In this document: positions 15,248 to 58,173 of the stretch, one piece after another
How the letters are laid out: each line of letters opens with the position of its first letter
How positions within the stretch are numbered: position 1 is the first letter of the stretch
Assembly: GCA_038065955.1 (NCBI GenBank)
Contig: JBBTPY010000001.1
Location: 92,061-156,060, forward strand
Direction of reading: 5' to 3'
Origin: Patescibacteria group bacterium
GTDB taxonomy: Bacteria > Patescibacteriota > Minisyncoccia > UBA6257 > UBA9933
DNA length: 64,000 nucleotides
Notes under the pieces: generated by a model
The model's database searches: none
Seen by the model: the letters and a program-made list of their open reading frames with translations, nothing else
Told to the model about the DNA's origin: nothing
Program-made: the position numbers and the translations under genes

Positions 15248-15282
15248 TTGACACTAAACGCTAAATATTAAATACTAAATAC
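15248..15282 (+). promoter_or_regulatory. Putative promoter for rpmB
   Basis: TTGACA - 17 nt - AATACT immediately upstream of the rpmB start. Confidence 0.4.
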
Positions 15283-15288
15283 TAATTT

Positions 15289-17998: not shown

Positions 17999-18005
17999 TT
18001 TTATG

Positions 18006-18077
18006 CGTCCCCACAAGGAATCGAACCTTGATCTTGAGTTCCGCAAACTCACACTCTATCCATTGAGCTATGGGGAC
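18006..18077 (-). tRNA. tRNA-Arg (GCG inferred)
   Basis: Revcomp GTCCCCATAGCTCAATGGATAGAGTGTGAGTTTGCGGAACTCAAGATCAAGGTTCGATTCCTTGTGGGGACG; anticodon stem TGAGT/ACTCA, loop TTGCGGA. Confidence 0.65.
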
Positions 18078-18082
18078 ATTTT

Positions 18083-18601
18083 CTAAAATCTTATCAATTT
18101 TAACAAAACATCGCTCATTGAAATTTTAATCTCCTCTCGCGGCAAAAATTTCAAAAGCGATTCGCTGATTTTTAATTCATCTTCGGCGAAAATATTAATC
18201 TTTAAATACGGCGCAAATTTTGATTTAAGCCTTAAAACCAATTCTTTATATTCCTCGTTAACCGGATGAATGTCAAAACAGTCAATTTCTTTAAATGAAT
18301 AAAACTTTTCGTCCGCTTTCTTGCCGGCTTCCCCGTCGGGAAATTTAATTAATATGCCGTCACCGTCTATCTTAAATTCCCAAACAGCCGGAAAACGATT
18401 AGCGAAAGAAAATACCACCGCTTCGGCAATTACCACAAAAATCGCAAATAAAAAATTCTTCTGCCATAAAGCCAGTATCAATAAAATTGCGGCAATAATC
18501 AAGCTCAGCCAATACCAAGAAACATCCTTGACGGTATATTCAAATTCCGGCGCCCGCCAGACGAACGGCTCAACTTGTTTTTTAATATTTTTATTCGCCA
18601 T
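18083..18601 (-). CDS. Hypothetical membrane protein (172 aa)
   Basis: Two N-terminal TM helices; no recognisable motif; the start codon abuts the tRNA-Ser 3' end. Confidence 0.5.
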   Translation of the reverse strand: MANKNIKKQVEPFVWRAPEFEYTVKDVSWYWLSLIIAAILLILALWQKNFLFAIFVVIAEAVVFSFANRFPAVWEFKIDGDGILIKFPDGEAGKKADEKFYSFKEIDCFDIHPVNEEYKELVLRLKSKFAPYLKINIFAEDELKISESLLKFLPREEIKISMSDVLLKLIRF

Positions 18602-18602
18602 G

Positions 18603-18684
18603 CGGAGGGTAGAGGAGTCGAACCTCTAAGGGCTTGCGCCCGCCGCTTTTCAAGAGCGGTGCCATGCCATTAGGCGAACCCTCC
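18603..18684 (-). tRNA. tRNA-Ser (TGA), type II
   Basis: Revcomp GGAGGGTTCGCCTAATGGCATGGCACCGCTCTTGAAAAGCGGCGGGCGCAAGCCCTTAGAGGTTCGACTCCTCTACCCTCCG; long variable arm, anticodon loop CTTGAAA. Confidence 0.75.
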
Positions 18685-18721
18685 ATACTAATATTAATGT
18701 ATATTATATAATAATTTTTCG

Positions 18722-18766
18722 AAAATTGGCAAAAAAAATATGGGGAAGCAGATATCTGCTTCCCCA
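18722..18766 (-). terminator. Rho-independent terminator of the 75-aa Cys-rich peptide gene
   Basis: Perfect palindrome ggggaagcagatatctgcttcccc followed on the minus strand by atatttttttt. Confidence 0.7.
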
Positions 18767-18889
18767 TAGAGAGGAGGAATGAAGGAATGGATAACCTTCA
18801 TTACTTTGGGGGGCTCTCGAGCCCACAAGCGTAAATCTCGAGAAAGCTTTACTTACGCTTATGGGGGTTAGCCACCCCACAAAGATTCA

Positions 18890-19117
18890 TTATCGTAAAA
18901 GTTCATTTTTACAATTACGATTTGCCTTAAGGCATGAAAACTTAGGTTTTGATTTGCAATCCTTTCTTTCAAGACCGCACTCCCCAATTTTGTTTATGTT
19001 TTTGATTTTTTGCTGAATCATAGTTGCTGTCGCGGCTATAAAAACGAGCTCTTTTCCATCACAAAATCCACTACGAATTCCCTCATTTATAAAATTAGCC
19101 ATATTGTTAAAATCCAT
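18890..19117 (-). CDS. Small Cys-rich protein (75 aa), hypothetical
   Basis: MDFNNMANFINEGIRSGFCDGKELVFIAATATMIQQKIKNINKIGECGLERKDCKSKPKFSCLKANRNCKNELLR; SD AAAGGAG 7 nt upstream; own terminator; 5 Cys in the C-terminal 30 aa. Confidence 0.5.
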   Translation of the reverse strand: MDFNNMANFINEGIRSGFCDGKELVFIAATATMIQQKIKNINKIGECGLERKDCKSKPKFSCLKANRNCKNELLR

Positions 19118-19302
19118 AACAGTCTCCTTTCAGATACAAAAACAAAAAAGGTTATTAAAGAAAAAACTATTCCCTCCTCAATTTAGTTAAGCAAATCCAT
19201 TCATCCATTCATATTTATCACCGCCTCCTTCCTTTTAAAATTATTTAAATGACCTATTAATATATTAGGCAGATTTTCGAAAAAGTCAACCCCTATCAAT
19301 TT

Positions 19303-19374
19303 TGGACCCGAGCGGGATCGAACCGCTGATCTCCTCATTGCAAATGAGGCATTCTACCACTGAACTACGGGCCC
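19303..19374 (-). tRNA. tRNA-Ala (TGC)
   Basis: Revcomp GGGCCCGTAGTTCAGTGGTAGAATGCCTCATTTGCAATGAGGAGATCAGCGGTTCGATCCCGCTCGGGTCCA; G3.U70 Ala identity pair. Confidence 0.8.
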
Positions 19375-19463
19375 GATTATTTTGGACTCGGCGAGAACCC
19401 AGCACAACAGCAAAACTGTGTGTACGGGGCGCGTTGAACTCGTGTCTCCATCCATCACCATTC

Positions 19464-19537
19464 TGGTGGACCCACCGGGAATTGAACCCGAACCTCGGCA
19501 ATGCGAATGCCGCGTAATGCCGTTTTACTATGGGCCC
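19464..19537 (-). tRNA. tRNA-Ala (CGC)
   Basis: Revcomp GGGCCCATAGTAAAACGGCATTACGCGGCATTCGCATTGCCGAGGTTCGGGTTCAATTCCCGGTGGGTCCACCA; G3.U70, CCA encoded. Confidence 0.65.
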
Positions 19538-19551
19538 ACCGCAAAGGTGAA

Positions 19552-19590
19552 GGACGAATGCGACGTATTGCCAACTATACTACAAGCCCG
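19552..19590 (-). pseudogene. Truncated tRNA 5' half (acceptor plus D-arm only) between tRNA-Pro(CGG) and tRNA-Ala(CGC)
   Basis: Revcomp GGGCTTGTAGTATAGTTGGCAATACGTCGCATTCGTCC has a canonical acceptor/D-arm but no anticodon, T-arm or 3' acceptor partner before the next tRNA begins. Confidence 0.45.
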
Positions 19591-19602
19591 TTTATCGCTT
19601 TG

Positions 19603-19674
19603 TCGGGCCGCCGAGAATCGAACTCGGTCTCTACGCACCCGAAGCGCATGTACTACCGGTATACTACGGCCCGA
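19603..19674 (-). tRNA. tRNA-Pro (CGG)
   Basis: Revcomp CGGGCCGTAGTATACCGGTAGTACATGCGCTTCGGGTGCGTAGAGACCGAGTTCGATTCTCGGCGGCCCGA; flanked by inverted repeat aaagcgat that extends the acceptor helix by about 10 bp. Confidence 0.7.
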
Positions 19675-19713
19675 CAAAGCGATGAACCCCGAAGCGCTCA
19701 CACTACGCCCGAT

Positions 19714-21294
19714 TTACTTCACATAATACTTCTTTTTTATCTCTGCTTCAATCCCCCCTTCAAATTCTTCCTTCTTTTCACGGCTAATTCTTGCCGATTT
19801 TTCAAGTTCAGCGTCCGATAATTTCCCTAAACTTTTAATTCTAAATTCCAAATTCTCTTTCGTGTTTTTTTCGGGATTTTCAATAACTTCATCCAGTAAA
19901 ACGGACAAAATCCAACCGATACGCGGACCCGGCGCAATGCCTAAAATTTTCATCACGTCTTCGCCGTTGACTTTCAGCATTTTCGGCGAAATCGGGTCTT
20001 GTTTCACTTTTTCAATCATAAAAAGCAGATGTCTTAATTTATAAGGCACGGCTTTCGGCACGCCGGAACCGATTCTATCCGCTTCGCGAATCTTGATTAA
20101 ATCGTTAACGTTTTCCGGGCCCACGCGGGCCAAAAATCTACGAACTCCGGCTTCCGTCACTTCGCCGACATTGTAATAAAAAAGGTGGCAACGGACCAAA
20201 TGAACGACTTTCTCCGCAATTTCTTTCGAAAAACGCAATCTATCCATCGCGGCCGCCGTTATTTTCGCGCCGACAACCTCGTGATTGTAAAAAGTGCAAT
20301 CAGGTCCTTCGCCGGCTTTAGTCCGAGGCTTACCGATATCGTGGAACAAAGCGGCTAAGCGAATCTCCAAAGAATAATTTTTCTTGACGGCGTAATCCAA
20401 AGCGCGCAAATTATGCTCCCAAATCGTGTAAATATGGTGCTTATTCTGGCCATTGCCTATTCCCTCGCGCAAATCCGGCATAATGTATTTCAACAAACCC
20501 GCCTCTTCAAGCAATTCAACTCCATTTTTCGCCGACGGCGTCATTATTATTTTTATAAACTCATCGCAAATCCTTTCTTTGGCTATCATTTCAAGCAACC
20601 CGGCTTCTTTTTTAATCGCTTCCATCGTTTTTTCTTCAATCGCAAAATTAAGCTGAACCGCGAATCTCACCCCCCGCATCAGCCGCAAAGCGTCCTCGTT
20701 AAAACGCTTTTCGGAATTCCCGACGGTGCGAATTATTCTATTTTTTAAATCTTCCTGTCCATTATAAGTATCAATAATTTTGAATTTTGAATTGTAATTT
20801 TGATTTTTGATTTTTGATTTTTGAATTTCTATTGCCATGGCATTTATAGTAAAATCCCGCCTGCTTAAATCTTCTTCAATAGTCTTGGCGAATTTAATCT
20901 CATCCGGATGCCTTTTATCCGTATATTTGCCCTCTAATCTGAATGTTGTTATTTCAACGACATTCAGCGCAGAACTACGCTGACTTGACGCTGAATTACG
21001 CTGAATTTCTTCTGCGTCTTTCTGCTTACCATCTGTGAGAGTCTGCGGTTTTAGTTTCACTAAAACAGTACCGAATTTATTTTCATAAACGGTGTCGGCA
21101 AAAATTTTCTGGATTTCTTCCGGTTTTGCGTTTGTGGCGACATCCCAATCTTTTGGTTCGCGATTCATTAAAATATCCCTTACGCACCCCCCGACAAGAT
21201 ATGCCTGAAAATTCGCTTTTTGTAATTTTTCAGATATATTTATAACTTCTTCGGGGATACTCGTCCTGAATTTTATTGAAGGATTGAAACTCAT
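19714..21294 (-). CDS. cca: CCA-adding tRNA nucleotidyltransferase / poly(A) polymerase family with HD domain
   Basis: LVGGCVRDILMNREPKDWDVATNAKPEEIQ nucleotidyltransferase head, HD domain HDIGK; contains in-frame repeat-derived inserts (20778-20828, 20964-21008). Confidence 0.85.
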   Translation of the reverse strand: MSFNPSIKFRTSIPEEVINISEKLQKANFQAYLVGGCVRDILMNREPKDWDVATNAKPEEIQKIFADTVYENKFGTVLVKLKPQTLTDGKQKDAEEIQRNSASSQRSSALNVVEITTFRLEGKYTDKRHPDEIKFAKTIEEDLSRRDFTINAMAIEIQKSKIKNQNYNSKFKIIDTYNGQEDLKNRIIRTVGNSEKRFNEDALRLMRGVRFAVQLNFAIEEKTMEAIKKEAGLLEMIAKERICDEFIKIIMTPSAKNGVELLEEAGLLKYIMPDLREGIGNGQNKHHIYTIWEHNLRALDYAVKKNYSLEIRLAALFHDIGKPRTKAGEGPDCTFYNHEVVGAKITAAAMDRLRFSKEIAEKVVHLVRCHLFYYNVGEVTEAGVRRFLARVGPENVNDLIKIREADRIGSGVPKAVPYKLRHLLFMIEKVKQDPISPKMLKVNGEDVMKILGIAPGPRIGWILSVLLDEVIENPEKNTKENLEFRIKSLGKLSDAELEKSARISREKKEEFEGGIEAEIKKKYYVK

Positions 21295-21368
21295 TAAAAT
21301 CTATTATAAACTAAAAACTAAACAACTGAAAATTTAATTGACTAAATTTACGCTCACCCCTTTCTTTT

Positions 21369-21440
21369 GCCCTTGTAGTGAAATGGATATCACGACAGGC
21401 TTCGAACCTGTTATTGGGGGTTCGAATCCCTCCAAGGGCA
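21369..21440 (+). tRNA. tRNA-Arg (TCG inferred)
   Basis: GCCCTTGTAGTGAAATGGATATCACGACAGGCTTCGAACCTGTTATTGGGGGTTCGAATCCCTCCAAGGGCA; anticodon loop CTTCGAA. Confidence 0.65.
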
Positions 21441-21449
21441 CATAAAAAG

Positions 21450-21522
21450 GCATCCCTAGCTCAATTGGCAGAGCAAATCCCTCTTAAGGATGAGGTTCTG
21501 GGTTCGACTCCCAGGGGATGCA
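21450..21522 (+). tRNA. tRNA-Lys (CTT)
   Basis: GCATCCCTAGCTCAATTGGCAGAGCAAATCCCTCTTAAGGATGAGGTTCTGGGTTCGACTCCCAGGGGATGCA. Confidence 0.75.
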
Positions 21523-21533
21523 CATAAAATTTT

Positions 21534-21608
21534 GCGGGTATCGTATAGTGGCCATTATGCGACCTTGCCAAGGTCGAGATAGGGGTTCGATTCCCCTTAC
21601 CCGCTCCA
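21534..21608 (+). tRNA. tRNA-Gly (GCC), CCA encoded
   Basis: GCGGGTATCGTATAGTGGCCATTATGCGACCTTGCCAAGGTCGAGATAGGGGTTCGATTCCCCTTACCCGCTCCA. Confidence 0.8.
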
Positions 21609-26400: not shown

Positions 26401-27715
26401 TGATATTTGCATTTTGAATTGTTAATACCCTTTCATATTTCGCCAATCTTTCCGGTTTGGCCGGCGCGCCGGCTTTTATTCCCCAAGCGCCGACGCCAAT
26501 TGCCAAATCAGCTATAAAATCATCAAGCGTCTCCCCGCTTCGATGACTGACAATCGCCTGCCAATTATTTTCATAAGCGAATTTTATCACTTTTAATGTT
26601 TCAGTTAAGGTTCCTATTTGGTTAGGTTTTATTAAAATCGCATTACCGGATTTTTTATTTATGGCGATTTTTAATCGTTCAATATTGGTTGTCGTTAAAT
26701 CATCGGCAATCACTAATTTTCCGCATTGTTCCGCGTTAGTTCCGTATAATTCCGTAGTGAGTAAAGCAAATGAACTAAAATCTTCTTCATTAAACGGGTC
26801 TTCAATTGATAAAATATTATAAGTTTCAATAAGTTTTAAATAATAATTTTTTAATTCTTCCGCTGAGTATTTTTTACCGTCAACAATATAAAAACCGTCT
26901 CTATAGAATTGCGCGGCGGCAATATCCAGTCCAATCTTTAATGGATATTTATATTTTTCAATAATTTCAGCGAGACATTCGATTGCTTCTTCGTTGTTTT
27001 TAAACGGCGCGGAATAACCGGCTTCATCGCCTAAAAAAACATTTTCACTCCCAAATTTATCCTTCAAATAATTTCCCAGTTTTCTGTAAAAAATCTTGCC
27101 CAAACTGAAAGCTATGTTAAAATCGTCAACTTCGGGAATGACTTGGAATTCTTGAATTTCTAATTTTGATTCCCGATGCGTCGCGTGCGCGCCGCCATTG
27201 ATAACATTAAAAATTGGCCGAAGCAAATTTTTTGACTTACGACCAACAACCAACGACTGATGACTTATATAATTAAATAGTTCTAATCTTTCGTTTTTTG
27301 CCTTCAGCCGCGCAAATGCCAAAGATAAAGATAAAATCAAATTCCCACCGAGATTGCTTTTAGCTTGCCCTGAGCTTGTCGAAGGGGCTTGCCCTGAGCT
27401 TGTCGAAGGGGCTTGCCCTGAGCTTGTCGAAGGGGCTTGCCCTGAGCTTGTCGAAGGAGTCCCGTCCAATTCAATTAAAAAATTGTCGAAATTTTCCTGT
27501 GATTCAAATTCATTTGATAATATTTTTGTCTTAATCTCTTCAAATTTTTTAAGCGCTAATTTTGGCTCCAAAACAAACGCCTCGTGCGTTCCAATGCTTT
27601 TGCCGGCCGGTGCGCTGGCTTTGGCTGAAAAATCTTCGCTTTTTAACTCCGCTTCCAAGGTATCTTTACCGCGAGAATCTGAAATGATTTTTATATTAAT
27701 GTCGCTGATTTTCAT
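26393..27715 (-). CDS. eno: Enolase
   Basis: Conserved enolase core; contains four in-frame tandem copies of STSSGQAP encoded by a 24-bp GC-rich repeat (27362-27456), inserted in the loop between LDGTP and the N-KS-LGAN segment. Confidence 0.9.
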
Positions 27716-27988: not shown

Positions 27989-30417
27989 TTTTTTTCTTTT
28001 TGATAAACTTTCTGCGTTGTTTTAATAATCGTATCCGAATTCAAAGAAATGCTGTTAATCCCCTGTCCCACCAAAAATTCGGCGAATCCTTCTATATCCG
28101 ACGGCGCTTGACCGCAAATTCCGATGTATTTGCCTTTTTCTTTGCATTTTTTGATAACTTCGGAAATCAATTTTTTTACTGATTCGTCGTTTTCATTAGT
28201 AATGCCGCGAATCATTTCATTGCCGTCACGGTCAATGCCGACAGTTAACTGCGTCAAATCGTTTGAACCAATAGACATTCCGTCAAAAATTTCCAAAAAT
28301 TCATCGGCTAAAATGACATTTGAAGGAATTTCACACATGACATATACTTTGACTTTTGACATTTGACTTTTGACATTTGACTCTAAAAACAAACCGTTTT
28401 TTTTCATAATTTCCAAAACTTTTTTGCCTTCTTCCGGCGTCCGGCAAAACGGCACCATTACTTCCACATTATCCAAGCCCATCTCCTCGCGGACTTTTTT
28501 AACGGCTTTAAGTTCCAAAATAAACGCCGCCGCGAAATTCGGATGATAATATCTTGAAGCGCCGCGCCAGCCGATCATCGGATTTTCCTCCGACGGCTCG
28601 TACAATTCCCCGCCGATAAGCGTTCTGTATTCATTTGTTTTAAAATCAGAAAATCTTAAAATTACCGGTTTCGGATAAAAAGCCGCGCCAATTTTCGCGA
28701 TACCGTAAGCGAGCTTATCAACATAAAATTGAGTTTTGTCTTTGTAGCCAATAATTTTTTTATCAATCGCGTTTTTAATTTTCGCCGGCATTTTTTTATA
28801 ATTTATCAAAGCATTTGGGTGAATCCCGATATCTCCGGCGATAATAAATTCTTCTCTCGCCAATCCCACGCCGTCATTCGGCAAAAAAGATTTTTCAAAA
28901 GCGGTTTCCGGCGTGGCAATATTAAGCATTATTTTAGTTTTCGGCCGCGACAATTTTTTAATATCGTGTTCAATTATTTTGAATTTTAAAGCGCCATCAT
29001 AAACAAAACCATCGCTGCCGGTCGTATCAACCGTAATCATTTGGCCAGTTTTTATTTTTCGAGTGGCGCTTTCCGAACCGACAATACAAGGAATGCCAAG
29101 TTCGCGGCTTACTATTGCCGCATGAGATGTTCGTCCTCCTTTGTCCGTTACAATCGCCGAAGCGATTTTCATAATCGGTTCCCAATCCGGGTCTGTCATA
29201 TCAGTAATCAAAATTTCACCGACCTTAAATTGTCCGATATTTTTAGCGCCTAAAATTACACGCGCCTTACCCGTTGCGATTTTACTTCCAACCGATGCCC
29301 CTTTGACTAAAACATTTAACCTTTGACCTTTAACATCTGACAAAATATATTCTTTTATTTTGGAGAAATCGCGGCTGGCATGTATAGTTTCCGGTCTTGC
29401 CTGGACAATATATAACTCACCCGTTTTCCCATCCTTTGCCCACTCCATATCCATTGGCGTCCATTTGCCGTTTTTTGTCGAATAATGCTCTTCTATTAAA
29501 ATCCCCCATTTTGCCAGTTTTAAAATTTCGTCATCGCTTAAAACAAAACTTTCTTTTTCTTTTTGAGAAGTATTAATTATTTTCGTATTTTTAACGGAAA
29601 CGCCTTTGCCTTCCGAATAAATCATTTTTTGATTTTTAACGCCGAGTTTTTTATCAATAATCGCATTAGTTTTTTTGAAAACTAAAAATTCATCCGGCGT
29701 CACTTCTCCTTGAACAATCATTTCGCCAAGTCCCCATGAACCGTTTATCAAAACCGAATCCTTAAAACCGGATTCCGTGTCCAAAGTAAACATTACGCCG
29801 GAACAGCTCAAATCCGAGCGAATCATTTTTTGAACGCCGACCGATAAAGCGACTTTAAAATGGTCAAATCCTTTATCGACGCGATAAGAAACGGCGCGGT
29901 CGGTAAAAAGCGAAGCCATCGCCGATTTTACCGCTTTCAAAACTTCTTTGTCTCCGCGGATATTCAAATAAGTTTCATGCTCGCCGGCAAAAGAAGCGCC
30001 GGGCAAATCCTCGGCCGTGGCGCTTGAACGTACGGCAACATCAACGTTTTTGCCGTATTCTTTCTCTGTTTGCCGATACGCCTTAACAATTTCTTGTTTT
30101 AAATCATCCGGAAATTCCGCTTTTTTTATCGTTTCGCGGATAAGTTTTCCACGCCTTGATAAATCTTTTAAATTTTTTGTGTTTAAACCGCTAAGCGCCT
30201 CTTTTATAAATTTTTTCAATCTCATTTCTTCTAAAAAATAGCGATAAGCTTCCGCAGTAACAACAAACCCGCCCGGAATCTTTACTCCCTGCCTGCCGGC
30301 AGGCAGGCTTTTCGGCGTTAAATTTTGAATCATTTCGCCGAGAGAGGCGTTCTTTCCGCCCACCTCGGCAATGTCTTTTATGCCGACTTCGTTTAATTTT
30401 TTGATGAAAATTTTCAT
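27985..30417 (-). CDS. ppsA: Phosphoenolpyruvate synthase (pyruvate, water dikinase)
   Basis: GGKNASLGEM ATP-grasp N-terminus, central phosphohistidine domain, C-terminal PEP-utilising domain; start at MKIFIKKLNEVG; in-frame inserts VKSQMSKVKVYVM (octamer repeats 28336-28384) and a 22-bp perfect palindrome (30287-30308). Confidence 0.9.
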   Translation of the reverse strand: MKIFIKKLNEVGIKDIAEVGGKNASLGEMIQNLTPKSLPAGRQGVKIPGGFVVTAEAYRYFLEEMRLKKFIKEALSGLNTKNLKDLSRRGKLIRETIKKAEFPDDLKQEIVKAYRQTEKEYGKNVDVAVRSSATAEDLPGASFAGEHETYLNIRGDKEVLKAVKSAMASLFTDRAVSYRVDKGFDHFKVALSVGVQKMIRSDLSCSGVMFTLDTESGFKDSVLINGSWGLGEMIVQGEVTPDEFLVFKKTNAIIDKKLGVKNQKMIYSEGKGVSVKNTKIINTSQKEKESFVLSDDEILKLAKWGILIEEHYSTKNGKWTPMDMEWAKDGKTGELYIVQARPETIHASRDFSKIKEYILSDVKGQRLNVLVKGASVGSKIATGKARVILGAKNIGQFKVGEILITDMTDPDWEPIMKIASAIVTDKGGRTSHAAIVSRELGIPCIVGSESATRKIKTGQMITVDTTGSDGFVYDGALKFKIIEHDIKKLSRPKTKIMLNIATPETAFEKSFLPNDGVGLAREEFIIAGDIGIHPNALINYKKMPAKIKNAIDKKIIGYKDKTQFYVDKLAYGIAKIGAAFYPKPVILRFSDFKTNEYRTLIGGELYEPSEENPMIGWRGASRYYHPNFAAAFILELKAVKKVREEMGLDNVEVMVPFCRTPEEGKKVLEIMKKNGLFLESNVKSQMSKVKVYVMCEIPSNVILADEFLEIFDGMSIGSNDLTQLTVGIDRDGNEMIRGITNENDESVKKLISEVIKKCKEKGKYIGICGQAPSDIEGFAEFLVGQGINSISLNSDTIIKTTQKVYQKEKK

Positions 30418-31323: not shown

Positions 31324-32913
31324 TTATTTTTTATTTTTCTTTTTCAGTTTCGGTTTTGACTTTGATTTCGGTTTCTTTTTATTGGACATAATTATTTTAT
31401 AATTTTTAAAACGACCTTTTATTAGTTCATTATTTGATATTTTTAATATTACCATCAAATCCGCCACATTGAAACATTTTTGCTCGGCATATATCAAGTC
31501 GCCGGTTTTTTTGAAGAAATTGAAAGAGTCGTGGTTTTTTAAAAATTCTTCCGGTTTTAATTTTAATTTTTTCGCTTTTTCCAAAGTCAAAGAATCGCCG
31601 ATAGCTCCGGCGGCCTCGGTATTGTCGCGAGCGTCTGAAGTAAAAGAAATAAAAACTGAATCCTGATACAAAGCATTTAACATTTGACATTTGACTAGCG
31701 CACCGAGCACTGCTTCCTGATTGCGCCCGCCTTTGCCCTGAACCGCGCCGAAGGGCTTGCCCTGAACCGCGCCGAAGGGCTTGCCCTGAACCGCGCCGAA
31801 GGGCTTGCCCTGAACCGCGCCGAAGGGCTTGCCCAATTCATAATTCATAATTCCTGCCTGCCCCGTAGCGAACTTGTTCTGCTTCGGGGATTCGTGATTC
31901 AAATTTACAGTCGTTTCTCCGGCAGCGATTAAAACTTCATTTGTCTTAATTTTCGCTATCATTGATGATAGCGCCGCGCTTGCTTCTCCTTCCAGCGCTA
32001 AGGAGTGAATTTTTGATTTAAAACCCAATTCTTCGGCTTTATTCATCATTGCCATAACCGCGTCCTGATTGCAGACAAATAAAATATTGTCAACTTTCTT
32101 AAAATATTTTTGCTCTTTAGGCGTTTCGCTTAAATGAAATTTTCCCGCGTCAATTCCGTATTTTTTCAAAATATTTTCGGCATCAATCTTAGTCGTTTTA
32201 TCAAAGACCGTCGGGCCGGAAGCAACCATTGATAAATCATTGCCGCAAACATCGGAAACAATCAAAGAAACGACTTTTGCCGGATAAGCTTCCATAGTCA
32301 GCCCGCCGCCCTTAAATCTCGCTCCTGACAAATGCTTGCGAACGGCATTAAGCTCTGAAATGGCGGCTCCTGATTTGGTTAATTCTTTAATCGCCGAAAT
32401 TGATTCATTAAGCTCGGATTCGGAAGCGCAAGCCAAAGCCGAACCGCCGCCGCAAATAAAAGTAATGAGTAAATCGTCTTTATTCAAACTTTTCGCCAGT
32501 TTAATGATTTCTTGAGTGGCAATAATATTTTGTTCAGAGGGGAAAGGATGAGTTCCCTTAAAACATCTGACATTTGACTTCTGACCTTTGACAATAAAAA
32601 TATCCAGCGCGATGCCGCGAACCAATTTTTCACCTAAAATTTCAGCCAAATTTGAAACCGCCAAAGCGGAACCCTTCCCGACACCGACAATGAAAATCCG
32701 CTTAAAATCGTTTAAATTAATTTTAAGCGAATTTTTGGCGCTACCGCTCGCGCCAACATATTCAATAATTTCTAAAACGCCGTTTTTTATCTTAATCCGG
32801 TTTTTAATGATTTTTTCAATCTCAATCGCCTCATAACCAGCCTCTGCGATTTGAAGCGTCTTTTTTCTTAAATCATTTTTCGCCAGATTTTTTAAATTAG
32901 TGATTATTGACAT
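31324..32913 (-). CDS. Glycerate 2-kinase, MOFRL family (GckA/TtuD-like)
   Basis: GVGKGSALAV, GGGSAL, GETTV and GGRNQE motifs; four in-frame tandem copies of GKPFGAVQ from a 24-bp GC-rich repeat (31733-31833); Lys-rich C-terminal tail. Confidence 0.75.
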   Translation of the reverse strand: MSIITNLKNLAKNDLRKKTLQIAEAGYEAIEIEKIIKNRIKIKNGVLEIIEYVGASGSAKNSLKINLNDFKRIFIVGVGKGSALAVSNLAEILGEKLVRGIALDIFIVKGQKSNVRCFKGTHPFPSEQNIIATQEIIKLAKSLNKDDLLITFICGGGSALACASESELNESISAIKELTKSGAAISELNAVRKHLSGARFKGGGLTMEAYPAKVVSLIVSDVCGNDLSMVASGPTVFDKTTKIDAENILKKYGIDAGKFHLSETPKEQKYFKKVDNILFVCNQDAVMAMMNKAEELGFKSKIHSLALEGEASAALSSMIAKIKTNEVLIAAGETTVNLNHESPKQNKFATGQAGIMNYELGKPFGAVQGKPFGAVQGKPFGAVQGKPFGAVQGKGGRNQEAVLGALVKCQMLNALYQDSVFISFTSDARDNTEAAGAIGDSLTLEKAKKLKLKPEEFLKNHDSFNFFKKTGDLIYAEQKCFNVADLMVILKISNNELIKGRFKNYKIIMSNKKKPKSKSKPKLKKKNKK

Positions 32914-33475: not shown

Positions 33476-36400
33476 TTAAATCTTCTTTATGCCGAGCCAA
33501 ATTTCTGAATCGTCAATTTTCGTTTCCGATTCAACGGTAAATTTATCTGTTTTCGCGAATTCAATTTTTTTGGCGCCCACTTCGGTTTTAAGATTCTCCA
33601 TATTCTTGCTTATCAATTTTTGAAAATAATCGTCGGCGTGAATATTTAAAATAATCACGTCTTTTGGAATAAAATCGGCTTCTTTGCGCAAATCTTGAAT
33701 GACGCGCGTCAATTCGCGCAATTGTCCTTCAGCTTTTAATTCCGGCGTAATATTTATGTCTAATTCAACATCGCTCGCGATATTTTTGTCAAAAATAATT
33801 TCTTTGACATTCACCTCATCTTTAATCAATTCCAATAATTCTTTATTATTCTTGATACCTAATACTTGATACTTGATACTTATTTTTGCGAGCGGCTGCC
33901 GGACTTTTATGCCCGATTTCTGCCGCGCGTCTAAGCCAAGCGAACAAATTTTCCGCGTTTCCGCCATCATCTCAATCAATTTTTTATCAATTTTCGGTTT
34001 ACCCGCCGAAGTTTTAACGAAGGCGGGCCATTTTTCTAAATGAACTGATTCTATATTTCTAACACCTGACACCTGACACTTGACACTTTGATACAACGTT
34101 TCGCTGATAAACGGCGCAAAAGGCGCGCTCGCTTTTGAAAATTCAGATAAAACAAATCGAGTTGTCGCAATGGCATTTTGCTTATCTCTGCCTTCTGTTT
34201 TAAATCTTTCACGCGAGCGCCTGATATACCAAGTGGATAAATCGTCAATAAATTCTCCAAGCGGCCGGCTGGCTTTATCAAGTTCGTAATTATCCATCGC
34301 CTCGGACACTTCTTTAATTAGTTGTTTAAGCCGCGTCAAAATCCAAATATCCAAAATATTTTTACCTGACACCTGACGCTTGACACTTAACACCTTCTTA
34401 TCCGCGTATAAATCGTAAAATTGATAAACATTCCAAAGACGCATAATTATTTTTTTATAAACCTCATCAACGCCTTTTTCGGAAAAATTCAAATCTTCTC
34501 CGCGCACCGCCGGCGATGACAAAAGATAAAGCCGCAATGCGTCGGCGCCGTATTTTCCAACAATCTCCATCGGGTCCGGATAATTTTTTAGACGCTTGCT
34601 CATCTTTTGGCCGTCTTCGGCAAGAATAATGCCGTTAACAATCACATTTTTATAAGCCGGCTTATTAAACAGCCCCGTTGAAAGAACTAAAAGCGTATAA
34701 AACCAGCCGCGCGTCTGGTCAATGCCCTCGGCGATAAATTCAGCTGGAAATCCGAATTTTTGATTATTCTCAAACGGATAATGCGCCTGTCCGTAAGGCA
34801 TTGAACCGGATTCAAACCAACAGTCAAAAACTTCCGGGACTCGACGCATTTCTCCGCCGCAGGAACAAGTAAATTTCATTTCATCAATATACGGCCGATG
34901 CAAATCAAGCTCATAATTTTGATTATGAGGAAGCGGAATAAAATCCAATTTTTTTACTTCTCCGGTTTTTATAAAATCATCTGATTTATTTATTCGTGTG
35001 TGCCCATTCGTTAAGGCTTTCGCATACTTAATTTCCACGGCTTTTTTCGCATCGGCGCCGACAGTGGCGGCAAAAAACAACCAAATCGGATACTCGTGAG
35101 AAACGATTAAAATATTTTTATTTTGATATTTATTTTCAATTTCATACAAAAATTCCGCGACCCGATTTTTTAATTCCGTAAGATTTTCGCCCTCCGGCGG
35201 CGTTTTATAAAATTTCTCTTCAAGCGGCGCGAAATTCCGGTATTCTTCAATTTTTTTCCCGTCAATAATTCCAGTATTGACCTCTCTTAACCGTTTGTCA
35301 AAAATTATTTTCCCTTCCCAACCGATTGCCTTTACGGCAAGCTCGGCGGTTTCTTTGGCGCGGCGAAAATCAGAGACGAAAATAAAATCAATTTTTTCTT
35401 TTTTTATTTTTTTTGCCACCGCTAAAACCTGTTTTTTCCCTTTTTCCGTAAGAGAAAATTTATCTTTATTTTTAACGCTTGTATTAACGACGCCTAACGT
35501 GTTATTTTCTCCTTCGCCGTGGCGCATCATAAAATATCTGTTGCCGGACTTTTCCGTTTTTCTTTTTATATCATCTAAAGAGCCGATTATTTCCAAATTA
35601 TCACATCTCTCGCATTTCCAAGCCGGCAAAGGCGCTCCCCAAAATCTTGAACGCGAAATCGCCCAATCGCGCGCCCCTTCCAGCCATTTGCCGAAACGGC
35701 CGTCCCTGATGTGTTTTGGTATCCAGTTTATTTTTTTATTATTGGCAATCAGTTTATTTTTTATCTCTTCAACTTTAACGAACCAAGAACTTGCCGCGTA
35801 ATTTAAAAGCGGCGTGTCGCAACGCCAACAATGCGGATAAGAATGGATAATTTTTTCTTTTTTGAAAAGTTTGTTTTCCTTGGCGAGCCATTTAATTATT
35901 TCAATGTCAGTCGCTTGCGAATTTTCTTTCGGTTTTACGGACAATCCGACGAAATCTTTTACTTCCGACTTAAATTTTCCGTCTATCCCAACGTGCTGAA
36001 TAAACGGCAAATTTTCTTTTTTCGCCAAATTCATATCGTCTTCGCCAAAAGCCGGCGCAATATGAACTATACCGGTGCCCTCATTAGTTGTTACAAAATC
36101 ATCGGCGTAAATTTTCCAGCCGTTTTCACAATTTTTTAAATTTTTATCTTCTGCGTAATAATTAAAAAGCGGTTTGTATTTTTTACCGATTAAATCTTTA
36201 CCTTTAATAGGCAATCCAATAAGAGTAGTTTCTCCTTCAAATGGAAATGTTTTTACTAAAAGATTTTCGGCAACAATAAAAAATTCGTTTTTTATTTTTA
36301 CTTTTCCATATTTAATATCCGGATTTACCGCAAGCGCCACGTTCCCCGGTAGCGTCCAAGGAGTTGTCGTCCAAGCTAAAACAAAAGTGTTTGGTTCATC

Positions 36401-37045
36401 TTCTAATTCAAATTTAGCGACAACCGAAATATCGGTTATATCTTTATATCCCTGCGTCACTTCAAAATTCGCCAAAGTTGTTTCGCATCGCGGGCAAAGA
36501 TGCATCGGCTTATATCCCTCATAAATAAGCCCTTTATTAAAAAGCGACTTAAAAACCCACCAGACGGATTCCGTATAAGTCCAATCCATCGTTTTATAAT
36601 CGTTTTCCATGTCAATCCAGCGGCCGACTCGGGGAATTATTTTTTTCCATTCGTCCCTGTATTCCAAAACCGCGCCTTCGGCGGCTTCGTTGAATTTTTC
36701 AATGCCGATTCGCTCTATGTCTTTTTTCGTTTTCAATCCGAGTTTTTTCTCTATTTCATTTTCAATCGGCAAGCCGTGGCAATCCCAGCCCCAACGGCGA
36801 GGAACTTTTTTACCTTTCATCGCCTGATATCTCGGCACCGCGTCTTTTATGATTGACGCTAAAATATGGCCGTAATGCGGCAAGCCGGTGGCAAAAGGCG
36901 GCCCGTCATAAAAAACAAAACCGCCTTTCGGTTTTTTACCGGCGGGCTTTTCAATGGATTTTTCGAAAATCTTATTTTTTTGCCAAAATTTTAAAATTTC
37001 TTCTTCTAATTTATTGATATTAAATTTTTCCCTATTTTCGGACAT
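33476..37045 (-). CDS. ileS: Isoleucyl-tRNA synthetase with an embedded histidine-phosphatase (PGM-like) domain
   Basis: HIGH-class motifs (PPFATGLPHYGH, KMSKRLKNYPDP) and CWRCDTP/CERCD zinc knuckles; about 230 extra residues between CERCDNLEIIGS and DLHRPYIDE include RYFMMRHGEGENN (RHGE catalytic signature) and LIVSHEYPI; also carries octamer-repeat inserts. Confidence 0.9.
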   Translation of the reverse strand: MSENREKFNINKLEEEILKFWQKNKIFEKSIEKPAGKKPKGGFVFYDGPPFATGLPHYGHILASIIKDAVPRYQAMKGKKVPRRWGWDCHGLPIENEIEKKLGLKTKKDIERIGIEKFNEAAEGAVLEYRDEWKKIIPRVGRWIDMENDYKTMDWTYTESVWWVFKSLFNKGLIYEGYKPMHLCPRCETTLANFEVTQGYKDITDISVVAKFELEDEPNTFVLAWTTTPWTLPGNVALAVNPDIKYGKVKIKNEFFIVAENLLVKTFPFEGETTLIGLPIKGKDLIGKKYKPLFNYYAEDKNLKNCENGWKIYADDFVTTNEGTGIVHIAPAFGEDDMNLAKKENLPFIQHVGIDGKFKSEVKDFVGLSVKPKENSQATDIEIIKWLAKENKLFKKEKIIHSYPHCWRCDTPLLNYAASSWFVKVEEIKNKLIANNKKINWIPKHIRDGRFGKWLEGARDWAISRSRFWGAPLPAWKCERCDNLEIIGSLDDIKRKTEKSGNRYFMMRHGEGENNTLGVVNTSVKNKDKFSLTEKGKKQVLAVAKKIKKEKIDFIFVSDFRRAKETAELAVKAIGWEGKIIFDKRLREVNTGIIDGKKIEEYRNFAPLEEKFYKTPPEGENLTELKNRVAEFLYEIENKYQNKNILIVSHEYPIWLFFAATVGADAKKAVEIKYAKALTNGHTRINKSDDFIKTGEVKKLDFIPLPHNQNYELDLHRPYIDEMKFTCSCGGEMRRVPEVFDCWFESGSMPYGQAHYPFENNQKFGFPAEFIAEGIDQTRGWFYTLLVLSTGLFNKPAYKNVIVNGIILAEDGQKMSKRLKNYPDPMEIVGKYGADALRLYLLSSPAVRGEDLNFSEKGVDEVYKKIIMRLWNVYQFYDLYADKKVLSVKRQVSGKNILDIWILTRLKQLIKEVSEAMDNYELDKASRPLGEFIDDLSTWYIRRSRERFKTEGRDKQNAIATTRFVLSEFSKASAPFAPFISETLYQSVKCQVSGVRNIESVHLEKWPAFVKTSAGKPKIDKKLIEMMAETRKICSLGLDARQKSGIKVRQPLAKISIKYQVLGIKNNKELLELIKDEVNVKEIIFDKNIASDVELDINITPELKAEGQLRELTRVIQDLRKEADFIPKDVIILNIHADDYFQKLISKNMENLKTEVGAKKIEFAKTDKFTVESETKIDDSEIWLGIKKI

Positions 37046-39105: not shown

Positions 39106-40754
39106 TACATTTTTTTCGGCATACTTACGCCGAGCAGCCCGAATAAATTTTTAAAAATAACTTGCGTCGCTTTTATTAATTCTAAACGCGCCGCCATTAA
39201 ATTCTCTTCTGCGCCCATAATTCTTTCTTTTTCGTAAAAATTATGAAAAGTTTTCGCTAAATCCAAAGAATATCGCGCCAAAATCTGCGGATTATAATTA
39301 TTCGCCGCCTCTTTTATCACTTCCGAAAACCGCGCCAACTGTCTTATTAAATTTAAGTCCTCGTTAGTGCTTAATAAATCAAATTTAATCCTTGACTTTT
39401 GATATTTGACATTTGACTTCCGTAAAATACCACCGCATCTGACCGCCGCATATTGGACATAATAAACCGGATTTTTCATTGAACGCTCTTTCGCTAAAGA
39501 TAAATCAAAATTCATATGCGTATCCGATGAACTCATTAAAAAGAAAAACCTGGTCGCGTCCAAGCCGACTTCCTTGATTAAATCATCAAGCGTAATAAAC
39601 TCACCATTTCTCTTTGACATCTTCACTTCTTTGCCCTCTTTAATTAAGCGAATTAATTGAGTAATAATTACTTTAAATTTTCCGTCACCGTTTTCAAAAA
39701 TACTGAGCGCTTTTAACCCGGCGCGAAGCCGCGGCTCATAGCCGTGATGGTCCGCTCCCCAAATATCAATAACTTGAGTAAATTTCCGAGTTTTAAATTT
39801 ATTTAAATGATAAGCCATGTCCGGCAGAAAATAAGTCGGCTCGCCGCTCGCCCGCACCAACACTCTATCCTCGTTGTCGCCGAAATCTTTAGTCTTCATC
39901 CATAAAGCGCCGCCTTTTTCATAAACCAAATTTTTGCGCTTCAATTCGTCAAGTAATTTTTCAACCGCGCCGTTCTTATACAAACTCTCCTCGCTGAACC
40001 ATTTGTCAAAATTTATTTTCAAACCTTTTTCAATAAATTTTTTGTTGTCTTTTTGAATTTCCCGCGCCAATAAATTACCCGCTTTACCGTAATCCGTAAT
40101 ATTTTTAAGTTTTTCGCCTAAATTCTTAATTATTAATTCTAAATTTTTTGTTTTATAAATATTGCCTTCGCCAAGCGCTGTTTTGCCGAGTTCTTTTATT
40201 TGCGTGCTCGCTTTGGCATCATTGACATAATATTCTTTTACTACTTTATAACCGGCGAATTTCAAAATGTTCGCCAAAACATCGCCGAAAAATCCTCCCC
40301 GGCCATTGCCGATTGTTAACTGCCCGGTGGGATTGGCGGAAATAAACTCTATCTGAACTTTTGACATCTGACCTCTGACAGCTGACTTGCCGTAATTTTG
40401 TTTTTTCTTCAAAATCTCTTTTAATTCGTCTTGTAAAACTTTTTCCGAAATCCAAAAATTGATAAATCCCGGTGTCGCCACTTCAATTTTTTCAAAAAAA
40501 TCCCTTGCTATCATTGATGATAGCGCGGTTTTTATTTCTTCGGCTATTTGCATGGGATTCTTTCCGCGCAATTCCGCGTTTAAATCCGCGTTCTTCCGCG
40601 CTAATGTGGCGAGTTTTAACGCCACATTAGAAGAATAATGCCCAAATTGCTCATTCTCCGGAACGAAAACTTCTATTTCTATTTTTTCTTTAATAACTTT
40701 TTTAAGATAATCGAAAATTTTTGACTTAATCATTGTTTTCATTATAATTAACAT
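39105..40754 (-). CDS. argS: Arginyl-tRNA synthetase
   Basis: 549 aa; class I HIGH region and C-terminal DALR anticodon-binding domain; octamer-repeat inserts at 39392-39420 and 40359-40390. Confidence 0.9.
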   Translation of the reverse strand: MLIIMKTMIKSKIFDYLKKVIKEKIEIEVFVPENEQFGHYSSNVALKLATLARKNADLNAELRGKNPMQIAEEIKTALSSMIARDFFEKIEVATPGFINFWISEKVLQDELKEILKKKQNYGKSAVRGQMSKVQIEFISANPTGQLTIGNGRGGFFGDVLANILKFAGYKVVKEYYVNDAKASTQIKELGKTALGEGNIYKTKNLELIIKNLGEKLKNITDYGKAGNLLAREIQKDNKKFIEKGLKINFDKWFSEESLYKNGAVEKLLDELKRKNLVYEKGGALWMKTKDFGDNEDRVLVRASGEPTYFLPDMAYHLNKFKTRKFTQVIDIWGADHHGYEPRLRAGLKALSIFENGDGKFKVIITQLIRLIKEGKEVKMSKRNGEFITLDDLIKEVGLDATRFFFLMSSSDTHMNFDLSLAKERSMKNPVYYVQYAAVRCGGILRKSNVKYQKSRIKFDLLSTNEDLNLIRQLARFSEVIKEAANNYNPQILARYSLDLAKTFHNFYEKERIMGAEENLMAARLELIKATQVIFKNLFGLLGVSMPKKM

Positions 40755-42590: not shown

Positions 42591-43022
42591 ATGATTATCG
42601 CCGCCAATAAACGAGCGTATTTTGACTACCAAATTCTTGAAACTTTTGAGGCCGGGATTGAATTAAAAGGATTTGAAGTTAAATCAATAAAAAACGGCAG
42701 GATAAACCTCGCCGGTTCTTACGCCGTCATCCGCGATAATCAAGCGTGGCTTCTTAACGCCGATATTCCGGCTTACCAACCGAAGAACGCGCCGAAAAAT
42801 TACGATTCCAAAAGAACGCGGCGGCTTTTACTGAAAAAATTGGAAATAAAAAACTTAATCGGCCGCATTCATGAAAAAGGCTTGACTTTGACTCCTTTAA
42901 AAGTTTATACTAAAAATCACAGAATAAAGATGGAAATCGGGTTAGGGAAAAGCAGAAAAAAAGCGGACAAAAGAGAATTAATAAAGAAAAGGGATGTTAA
43001 ACGAGAAATCAGACGGGAATGA
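42591..43022 (+). CDS. smpB: SsrA-binding protein
   Basis: 143 aa; N-terminal NKRAYFDY...E.GIEL.G.EVKS and basic C-terminal tail. Confidence 0.9.
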   Translation: MIIAANKRAYFDYQILETFEAGIELKGFEVKSIKNGRINLAGSYAVIRDNQAWLLNADIPAYQPKNAPKNYDSKRTRRLLLKKLEIKNLIGRIHEKGLTLTPLKVYTKNHRIKMEIGLGKSRKKADKRELIKKRDVKREIRRE

Positions 43023-43029
43023 CAGGAAT

Positions 43030-43390
43030 CGATGACAGCACTTTTATAAAATCGCAAGCCGAGGACGATTCGTCACCTCGTCAATCATCGAATCAAAATC
43101 ATATCTGCCAAAAACAGATTAGCCAATTATTTGGCTCCCGCTTTCGCTTTCGCCTAAGCGGCATCCGCTTTTAATCGCTTGAATTAAAAGACCGGGTGTA
43201 ATATTTTAAGCTATGGTTGATGTTCCGCCGAAAACATCTGCTGAAAATTATCGGCAAAGAGTTTTGAAGATTTCGTTAAGTTTTAACTTCTAAATTCTAT
43301 ATCCTAACTTGACTAAGCTCGTAGAAATTTTATAAATTTATTGTCAGACGGGGCTTCAATGCCCCCATTTCCACACAAATTTAAAAATTA
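43030..43390 (+). ncRNA. ssrA: Candidate tmRNA (ssrA) region immediately downstream of smpB; speculative
   Basis: No protein ORF. A short frame GCC AAU UAU UUG GCU CCC GCU UUC GCU UUC GCC UAA (43122-43157) = ANYLAPAFAFA*, tag-like and preceded by an A-rich tract with UAG as in known tmRNAs. Stable hairpins after the stop; 3' GGGGCUUCAAUGCCCC T-arm-like hairpin. The 5'/3' acceptor pairing could not be confirmed. Confidence 0.3.
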
Positions 43391-57406: not shown

Positions 57407-57490
57407 TAAATTTAGGATTTAGGATTTAGGATTTAGGATTTAGGACAATTTAAATCACCCTAAATTCTAAATTCTATATTCTAAATTTTA
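57401..57490. repeat. Inverted arrays of a 7-bp repeat (ggattta x4 / taaattc x4) forming a long imperfect palindrome between rnc and nusB
   Basis: aaatttaggatttaggatttaggatttaggatttaggacaatttaaatcaccctaaattctaaattctatattctaaatttta. Confidence 0.7.
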
Positions 57491-58106: not shown

Positions 58107-58173
58107 TGTTTAGTGATTAGTAAATAGTGATTAGTAATTAGTATTTAGGATTTTTGGAAAAAAGTCAATAAAT

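Follow-up and report, generated by a model that had tools for sequence, protein, structure and literature searches.

Heptanucleotide tandem arrays kept in frame within housekeeping genes of a Patescibacteria bacterium

Introduction

How can tandem repeats whose unit is not divisible by three come to lie, in frame, within a whole series of housekeeping genes? The question is raised by a 64,000-nucleotide stretch of a Patescibacteria group bacterium (contig JBBTPY010000001.1 of assembly GCA_038065955.1, positions 92,061 to 156,060; hereafter, the window). Here, short tandem arrays are embedded in the open reading frames (ORFs) of ppsA, glycerate kinase (glxK), ileS, argS, polX, rnhB, cca and smc. 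An original prediction, made from the sequence alone, had described them as octamer arrays that add peptide inserts to their host proteins and keep the frame through lengths that are multiples of 24 nt or through some other compensation. We report that the arrays are real, far above chance level and built on a unit of 7 nt, not 8. We argue that they are probably heptanucleotide microsatellites, similar to the short tandemly repeated repetitive (STRR) sequences of cyanobacteria, generated by a lineage-specific process and filtered by selection.

Results

The repeat unit is seven nucleotides long

Periodicity was scanned across the window by scoring +1 for each match at lag p and -2 for each mismatch, excluding low-complexity runs and applying a cut-off score of at least 10, and the chance level was taken from 20 dinucleotide-preserving shuffles of the window. 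The scan retrieved 16 arrays at period 7, against 0.15 expected in the shuffles, and it is this excess that establishes the arrays as real and far above chance. Period 14, that is, twice seven, yielded 10 arrays, and the remaining periods from 3 to 15 yielded 0-3 each, with a single array at period 8 (0.1 expected).

Tandem Repeats Finder (TRF) gave the same answer. Tandem arrays are indeed present at all the coordinates listed in the original prediction, and TRF assigned a period of 7 (or 14) to 13 of these 14 arrays and a period of 8 to none of them, the true units being TGACATT, TGACACC, TTGATAC, TTTGGAG and GTCGTCG. The forward strand of the ppsA array at 28336-28384, for instance, reads TTTGACTTTTGACATTTGACTTTTGACATTTGAC. 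The exception, cca 20964-21008, has a period of 10-11 nt and belongs to another class. The supposed rule of 24 nt also fails, since the heptamer arrays span 18-53 nt, and no multiple of 24 occurs among their lengths. Their copies match one another at 75-94% (TRF). The earlier list omitted arrays both within ORFs (ppsA 29311-29341, cca 19837-19855, argS 40121-40145 and glxK 31835-31853) and outside them (15253-15285, 57410-57445, 57460-57487 and 58110-58153). All arrays are collected in Table 1. Fifteen out of 21 period-7 arrays (~70%) lie inside ORFs of at least 200 aa, although their density is ~2.5 times higher outside ORFs than inside. The host genome is compact, with ~85-90% of its length coding, and its arrays are mostly genic.

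Table 1. Tandem arrays of the window, with units of in-ORF arrays written on the coding strand
Feature	Position	Strand	Unit and copies	Encoded peptide	Remarks
ppsA loop 2	28336-28384	-	GTCAAAT/GTCAAAA x5	SNVKSQMSKVKV, aa 694-710	TRF period 7, 5.0 copies; period 14 at 100%
ppsA loop 1	29311-29341	-	GTCAGAT GTTAAAG GTCAAAG GTTAAAT	SDVKGQRLN, aa 376-384	TRF 29311-29334, period 7
Glycerate kinase (DUF4147/MOFRL)	31674-31696	-	GTCAAAT x3	LVKCQMLNA	
Glycerate kinase, short	31835-31853	-	GAATTAT x2.7		Adjoins perfect 24-nt array 31733-31834
Glycerate kinase	32563-32594	-	GTCAAAG GTCAGAA GTCAAAT GTCAGAT	IVKGQKSNVRC, aa 107-117	
ileS	33851-33884	-	AAGTATC x4	KISIKYQVLGIK, aa 1054-1065	
ileS	34062-34092	-	GTCAAGT GTCAGGT GTCAGGT	SVKCQVSGV, aa 985-995	
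ileS	34364-34395	-	GTTAAGT GTCAAGC GTCAGGT GTCAGGT	aa 884-894	
argS	39392-39420	-	GTCAAAT GTCAAAT ATCAAAA GTCAAGG	KSNVKYQKSR, aa 445-455	
argS, degenerate	40121-40145	-	AAGAATT-like x3.6	NLELIIKNL	TRF period 7
argS	40359-40390	-	GTCAGCT GTCAGAG GTCAGAT GTCAAAA	KSAVRGQMSK, aa 122-132	
polX	45366-45400	-	GTCAAAT x2 GTCAGGT GTCAAAT	NVKCQMSGVKCR, aa 408-419	TRF period 7, 4.9 copies
smc	54938-54968	-	CGACGAC/CGACAAC x3.7	YDRRPTTDDNE	TRF period 7; same in five other assemblies
rnhB site 2	62382-62415	-	GTCAAAT x2 GTCAGAT GTTAGAT	NVKCQMSDVRC, aa 121-132	
rnhB site 1	62648-62685	-	CCAAACT/CTAAACT x4.9	ANSKLKTPNSKLK, aa 31-44	
cca	20776-20828	-	AATCAAA/AATTCAA x7.7, one 6-nt unit	EIQKSKIKNQNYNSKFKI, aa 156-173	TRF period 7, 4% indels
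cca, short	19837-19855	-	GAATTTG x2.7		
Intergenic	15253-15285		ACTAAAT x4.7		Upstream of M50 peptidase gene; unit with stops on both strands
Intergenic inverted pair	57410-57487		(ATTTAGG)5 + (CTAAATT)4		Between nusB and rnc; TRF matches 100% and 90%
Intergenic	58110-58153		TTAGTAA/TTAGTGA x5.6		Upstream of nusB
cca, non-heptamer	20964-21008	-	Period 10-11 nt, CGCTGAATTA x3.9 (unit also written AATTCAGCGT)	In frame	TRF period 10, 3.9 copies

In-frame arrays pass a stop-codon filter

Pfam domains confirmed the predicted identities of the host genes (PPDK_N/PEP-utilizers, DUF4147 with MOFRL, class I aminoacyl-tRNA synthetase, DALR/ArgRS, PolX with PHP, RNase HII, PolyA_pol/CCA and SMC_N). As had been claimed, the host ORFs are all full length and every in-ORF array reads in frame when translated; the peptides previously quoted (SNVKSQMSKVKVYVM and VKCQVSGV) are correct. 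The earlier reasoning that a unit not divisible by three cannot hold the frame by itself also stands, and it follows that selection must shape what is seen. The intactness of the ORFs is, by itself, mere survivorship. The minus strand carries nearly every gene of the window, and GC skew is negative throughout.

The composition of the units is more telling. Since a 7-nt unit repeated three times traverses all three frames, an array within an ORF must lack stop codons in every one of them; (GTCAAAT)3, for example, encodes the cyclically recurring sequence VKCQMSN. The units of 13 of the 15 in-ORF arrays contain no stop on the coding strand; for 10 of these 13 the opposite strand carries stops, which locks the orientation of the array. 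All five intergenic arrays, together with a weak period-7 stretch (43276-43306) inside the tmRNA gene, consist instead of TAAAT-type units with stops on both strands. That tmRNA gene (43015-43376, plus strand; 111 bits in Rfam) is the only known RNA family that overlaps any of the arrays in an Rfam-type search.

Relatives provide a second line of evidence. They were compared at syntenic loci (L081, L083/L092, L003, L002, L001 and L093), the closer ones having been obtained through exact-protein look-ups; the relatives from the genome collection belong mostly to distant phyla and were used as controls. In three arrays of these relatives, one unit departs from the consensus exactly where an in-frame stop would fall: CTAAATT becomes CTTAATT in glxK of L002, AAAATTG becomes AAAATTA in glxK of L003 and AAACTTA becomes AAACTGA at rnhB site 1 of L093. 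Because the genic and intergenic repertoires differ and rescuing substitutions occur, these data show that the arrays are, by every sign in the sequence, translated and filtered by selection.

Arrays coincide with loops of the host proteins

When compared with solved structures of RNase HII and ArgRS, the arrays match gaps or unconserved stretches. In an AlphaFold2 model of the window RNase HII (mean predicted local distance difference test score, pLDDT, of 83), both rnhB arrays fall in coil between secondary-structure elements, that of site 1 between strand 23-31 and the next helix and that of site 2 in a coil with a pLDDT of ~62. The corresponding loops are 8 aa (site 1) and 5 aa (site 2) longer than in the Thermotoga maritima enzyme. 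Residues 445-455 of ArgRS, in turn, align one to one, without insertion, with the Campylobacter jejuni enzyme (3fnr). Some arrays therefore lengthen a loop and one, argS 445, replaces a native segment of equal length, so the description of the arrays as pure peptide inserts has to be amended. In ppsA, the two array sites correspond to short turns in outgroups from many phyla, and loop 2 (28336-28384) is hypervariable, with 0 to ~35 extra residues among 75 close homologues.

The ileS gene (33476-37045, minus strand) also carries a whole histidine-phosphatase domain (His_Phos_1; aa 505-674, E-value 3.7e-32) within its catalytic domain, an architecture found in relatives L081 and L083 as well. 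The cca gene, for its part, is surrounded by a dense tRNA cluster (18005-21608) that contains 10 out of the 13 tRNA genes of the window.

Orthologous loops retain arrays while their units turn over

The closest ppsA proteins belong to metagenome-assembled genomes (MAGs) of Patescibacteria and Candidatus Wolfebacteria, the best being 86% identical. Relatives carry period-7 arrays at the same loops, often with other units, as at glxK 107, ileS 884, 985 and 1054, argS 445 and both ppsA loops. At glxK 107-117, where the window has GTCARRN units, L083 has TTCCAAT x4, L003 AAATTGA x4 and L002 AAATTCT/TAATTCT x5. At ileS 884, also GTCARRN in the window, the counterparts are AAATCAA x5 (L083), AAATCCN x4 (L003) and AAATACA x4 (L002), and the AAGTATC units of ileS 1054 correspond to AAATCTC in L081 and AAATCAA x4 in L002. 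At argS 445, the GTCAAAT units of the window are replaced by GTCAGAT/GTCGGAT x4 in an array of equal length in L081, and by AAAACCA-like x6 in L083. The array at ileS 985 is 7 aa (21 nt) longer in the window than in L081, and the glycerate kinase array at 31674-31696 is missing from the orthologues of L083, L002 and L081.

Other arrays are more widely shared. That of ppsA loop 1 is common to the window, L081, L001 and others, and period-7 arrays occur at this loop in L003 as well. At rnhB site 2, VKCQMSDVRC-type peptides are found in homologues at 64-75% identity, with GTCAAAT units visible in L093; at site 1, periodic NxKLK peptides are present in most of the 70 homologues inspected (120 retrieved), and the L093 orthologue reads AAACTTA x5. 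Some arrays are thus old. Within an array, the units tend to change in concert: at rnhB site 1, NSKLK..NSKLK in the window corresponds to NLKLK..NLKLK in L093, and at argS 445 the AAAT units of the window correspond to AGAT/GGAT units in L081, with the same A/G differences recurring across units.

The rnhB neighbourhood of L093 contains two genes for four-helix proteins of the 23S_rRNA_IVP or bAvd-like type (PF05635; 11428-11793 and 18775-19149), a family that includes accessory proteins of diversity-generating retroelements (DGRs). No reverse transcriptase was seen near them in the 20 kb fetched. Several ppsA proteins of Wolfebacteria (homologues of ~1211 aa) contain a LAGLIDADG-type intein (PF14528), absent from the ppsA of the window.

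The period-7 arrays are concentrated in a few lineages

Among 93 fetched loci (995 kb in total), 62 had no period-7 array. The arrays were concentrated in Wolfebacteria-like bacteria and in filamentous cyanobacteria (Nostoc, Dapis and Microcoleus). A few other lineages, among them a Woesearchaeota archaeon and a Limisphaerales bacterium, had fewer. In these loci, cyanobacterial arrays are mostly intergenic, whereas those of the compact genomes of the candidate phyla radiation (CPR) lie mostly within genes.

Two Nostoc species carry heptamer arrays in the very loop of ppsA, loop 1, that is occupied in Wolfebacteria. One has an in-frame ATCCCTA x3.7 (L052, 11083-11108), and in the other (L063) GCAGGGGA x4 and CCCCTCTG x4 form an inverted pair, likewise in frame. 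The two species carry these arrays independently, a case of convergence.

The arrays are identical across independent assemblies

The window is identical to a groundwater MAG from the Hainich site (GCA_964355445.1) over 23.5 kb and to an ENA contig (Hain_H52) over 11.8 kb. In contig_106 of another assembly of that site (ENA ERZ1286166), which is 695 kb long, the only differences are seven deletions of one base each in homopolymers, on account of which we take it to be a long-read assembly; between the window and an assembly of a different sample, there are four substitutions and a few changes in homopolymer length. The arrays are the same in all the assemblies compared (ENA, NCBI and Logan; at least six independent assemblies from several samples), and the inverted pair at 57410-57487 is the same in those covering it (L085, L086, L087 and L089). 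Such exact reproduction means that the arrays are not assembly noise, one of the conditions under which the original prediction was to be abandoned. No copy-number difference, and hence none of the phase variation or hypervariability that had been envisaged, was seen among independent assemblies of this essentially clonal population. For copy-number change in 7-nt steps between related strains, the genomes that could be compared are either identical to the window or at least 14% diverged in protein sequence, with no intermediate relatives found.

Closer comparisons were possible in ppsA, where ten clusters of proteins share at least 90% identity. A single 2-aa difference in a heptamer-type loop was detected (cluster 4). 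Nearly all indels derive not from heptamers but from GC-rich, hairpin-like mini-insertions (LRQPADGG, LPAGRQG, RLRQGFGGQ and DPSGICRGQ; LRQAQG is also among these elements), which are present or absent as single copies between these proteins and are the recently active insertion class. The window also contains perfect (100%) GC-rich tandem arrays of similar elements, with units of 24 or 21 nt, in frame, in enolase (27363-27457), glycerate kinase (31733-31834) and a pseudouridine synthase (3513-3557), encoding peptides such as GKPFGAVQ x4.

One family of units predominates in the window

Ten arrays have GTCARRN units on the coding strand: two each in ppsA, glycerate kinase, ileS and argS, and one each in polX and rnhB. 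The other in-ORF units include AAGTATC, CCAAACT, AATCAAA and CGACGAC. Seeding by abundant words was considered and rejected, as singletons of the GTCAAAT family are only 1.4-fold enriched, and words that are far commoner (AAATCAA, for example) yield few arrays in the window. The same modest enrichment ruled out a dispersed motif resembling an uptake signal. The sharing of units is partly due to common ancestry, because several GTCARRN arrays are old and common to distant relatives at orthologous loops; for the rest of the effect, spread between loci or conversion may play a part.

Discussion

Origin of the arrays

We favour, with a probability of about 0.6, the explanation that these are STRR-like heptanucleotide microsatellites. 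A lineage-specific mutational process, such as replication or repair slippage or unequal exchange, would create and homogenise short tandem arrays in a 7-nt register. Selection, as the data show, then retains within genes only those whose net length keeps the frame, whose units are stop-free in the three coding-strand frames or substituted at the in-frame stop, and which lie in structurally tolerant loops; arrays also survive in intergenic DNA. The survivors within genes are translated as low-complexity loop peptides, presumably neutral, that lengthen or overprint the loops of essential enzymes. They persist for long at orthologous positions while their units drift, with concerted change inside an array. 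They do not act as on/off switches, and a dedicated insertion enzyme is not needed.

Several points weigh against this explanation. Slippage is something we infer rather than show, because no copy-number variant was seen. A slip of one unit is a frameshift in an essential gene, and the register of the arrays in ileS, argS and rnhB calls for multi-unit or compensated events, none of which was observed directly. Possible routes are multi-unit events, steps of 21 nt, events that are compensated (the cca array has a 6-nt unit) or a masking effect of polyploidy. A ladder of 7-aa (21-nt) steps in loop length was sought among the 120 RNase HII homologues and rejected; the lengths spread broadly, their modes being 22/24/28/35 and 18/22, and form no clean ladder. 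Slippage, moreover, gives no reason why the register should be 7 nt. Finally, units from one genome resemble each other more than they resemble those of other genomes (0 out of 2,000 permutations), and GTCARRN accounts for ten window arrays, yet as a singleton the word is not unusually common (44 observed, 32 expected); such family sharing is not what purely local, independent slippage predicts.

It is this within-genome likeness that speaks for the main rival, a spread of arrays between loci, by which a sequence-family-specific process would write or copy them, each genome's own heptamer family overprinting permissive loops. Ectopic gene conversion between arrays, templated patch repair and telomerase-like or reverse-transcriptase repeat addition are candidates. 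GTCARRN occurs at 10 loci within 64 kb, the loops concerned have other units in relatives, singletons of the GTCAAAT word are too infrequent to seed arrays by chance, and the overprinting of argS 445 at equal length could be explained by a one-step, frame-preserving replacement. We nevertheless consider spread rather unlikely, given that arrays outside the ORFs of the same genome use different, TAAAT-type units, that some units continue the ancestral local sequence (AAACCTA of L003 beside native LKPLK codons, for example) and that several GTCARRN arrays are old enough to be shared by distant relatives at orthologous loops. Nor do the arrays have conserved flanks, termini or target duplications. 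The nearby recombinase, or gene of a retron or DGR, that had been proposed as something to look for is not there: no recombinase, transposase, reverse transcriptase, retron or DGR accessory gene was detected in the 64-kb window. Having no such gene nearby, no shared flanks or ends among the ten GTCARRN arrays and lengths that range from 18 to 53 nt, the arrays were also rejected as a mobile element resembling miniature inverted-repeat transposable elements or Rickettsia palindromic elements. A further form of the idea seems to us improbable. In it, the arrays would be no passive outcome of slippage; a genome-encoded activity specific for a unit family would write or homogenise them across loci, by templated repeat addition or patch repair at breaks or by ectopic conversion between arrays, with single frame-preserving events overprinting tolerant loops with the lineage's heptamer (here GTCARRN). 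Were it true, it would account for the genome-specific units, the equal-length replacement in argS and the 7-nt register in essential genes, and it would also offer a mechanism for cyanobacterial STRR repeats.

We are similarly doubtful that the arrays are functional cis-elements, whether DNA or mRNA binding sites for a heptamer-reading protein or structural or regulatory elements, which on that account would lie within genes because the genome has little intergenic space. Their positions are kept across species at 60-85% protein identity, and Csp and S1 proteins binding heptamer repeats have been discussed (PMC4679880). However, the units at a given site vary freely between relatives, unlike a conserved binding site, those of ORFs and intergenic regions differ, and the host genes are unrelated, with no common position of the arrays relative to starts or stops. 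Read in antisense, GTCARRN gives TTGACA/TTGACT, and some arrays coincide with promoter-like matches. These are expected from repeating TTGAC in AT-rich DNA, and an antisense promoter role was rejected, the matches being at consensus level only. The intergenic inverted pair is a case apart: situated between nusB and rnc, it folds in computations into a long imperfect hairpin that is stable (-21 kcal/mol, z = -3.4), L092 has an inverted pair like it (1440-1508), and a cis-regulatory role is possible for it. That the arrays are contingency loci, acting as hypermutable switches or a source of protein variation within the population, we regard as highly improbable. Units not divisible by three are the classic substrate of phase variation, and the 2-aa difference in ppsA cluster 4 could be read in this way, but the hosts are essential single-copy housekeeping genes with arrays in mid-gene, every array is in frame, and at least six independent assemblies carry identical arrays, with no differences other than a few substitutions and the length of homopolymers. 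Metagenome assembly can go wrong at short repeats, yet an assembly or sequencing artefact has a negligible probability here: the arrays are shorter than reads, recur in assemblies of different samples from three sources and in a 695-kb contig with long-read-type errors, and have orthologous counterparts in many other genomes.

Implications

If the arrays are STRR-like microsatellites, a heptamer signature whose origin is unexplained is now recorded in an unrelated lineage of ultra-small genomes, within essential genes and past the filters of frame and stop codons. They amount to a natural experiment in how units turn over and how large the steps are, through which it can be asked whether arrays grow only by multi-unit events, and the orthologous loops of CPR bacteria and Nostoc become directly comparable. 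They also offer a concrete route to lineage-specific low-complexity loops in conserved enzymes of Patescibacteria, which affects alignment, annotation and structure prediction.

Comparison with known repeat systems

Knowledge of heptanucleotide repeats in bacteria goes back to about 1990, and in 2007 they proved to be the dominant class of long simple sequence repeats (SSRs). In the phase-variable SSRs of host-adapted pathogens, the frame-shifting unit is shared with the window; these repeats are characterised by length polymorphism and by surface or host-interaction genes, neither of which applies to the window arrays, all of them in frame and monomorphic in housekeeping hosts. The Rickettsia palindromic elements are repeats of a non-coding type, dispersed palindromes of 100-150 bp, conserved over their full length and inserted in frame in surface-exposed parts of conserved proteins. 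The heptamers resemble them in being tolerated in frame, but they have neither defined ends nor palindromy, and the closer analogue in the window is the class of GC-rich hairpin mini-insertions. DGRs, for their part, are recognised by a nearby reverse transcriptase that is accompanied by a template/variable repeat pair, and the 64-kb window has no reverse transcriptase or accessory gene. The heptamer arrays thus look like neither a regulatory switch nor a new mobile system.

The tandem repeats of Borgs are found within ORFs, do not disturb the frame and encode low-complexity or disordered protein segments, as in the window, and their units are always divisible by three (PMC9879509). They are perfect and recent, whereas the heptamers are imperfect (75-94% matches), old and not divisible by three. 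It is the 24-nt arrays of the window (27363-27457 and 31733-31834) that represent a Borg-like class.

Among the long SSRs of many bacteria, heptanucleotides are cited as the most abundant class, and polymerase slippage has been put forward as a hypothesis (Mrazek, Guo & Shah 2007, through PMC4692102 and PMC4679880); this origin of the heptamer excess has been proposed but never shown (PMC4692102, PMC4679880). The repeats themselves, their stop-free orientation in ORFs and their lineage-specific units are already described (PMC4679880, PMC4692102). Our literature search found no report of heptamer arrays in Patescibacteria, of heptamers dominating inside conserved housekeeping genes or of persistence at orthologous loops with unit turnover, including the convergence with Nostoc. 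The TAACTGA repeats of Beggiatoaceae, Microcystis and others are likewise heptamers that occur in ORFs only in the stop-free orientation and are translated into a 7-aa repeat, LSVISYQ in their case and VKCQMSN in the window (PMC4679880). The intergenic arrays of related strains vary in steps of 7 nt, and indels of this step size separate Cyanothece strains (PMC4679880). There, however, one unit is dominant and is mostly found immediately upstream of start codons, the in-ORF cases being peripheral or in hypothetical proteins (PMC4679880), whereas the window has many units, in mid-gene positions of essential enzymes.

The nearest counterpart is the STRR class of heterocystous and filamentous cyanobacteria, which consists of 7-nt direct repeats in 3-8 copies at many loci per genome, with only period 7 over-represented, lineage-specific units and inverted pairs. 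The window shares these traits, its arrays being head-to-tail repeats of at least ~3 copies, at many loci and with an excess specific to period 7, and the Nostoc, Dapis and Microcoleus loci fetched here contain arrays of the same kind. The difference lies in placement: STRR repeats are described as overwhelmingly intergenic, as are, for the most part, the repeats of Xanthomonas and Beggiatoaceae, whereas ~70% of the window arrays lie in conserved housekeeping ORFs, at orthologous loops across species of Patescibacteria. Taken together, the window arrays look like the same kind of object as the cyanobacterial STRR repeats and the heptamer SSR excess of other bacteria.

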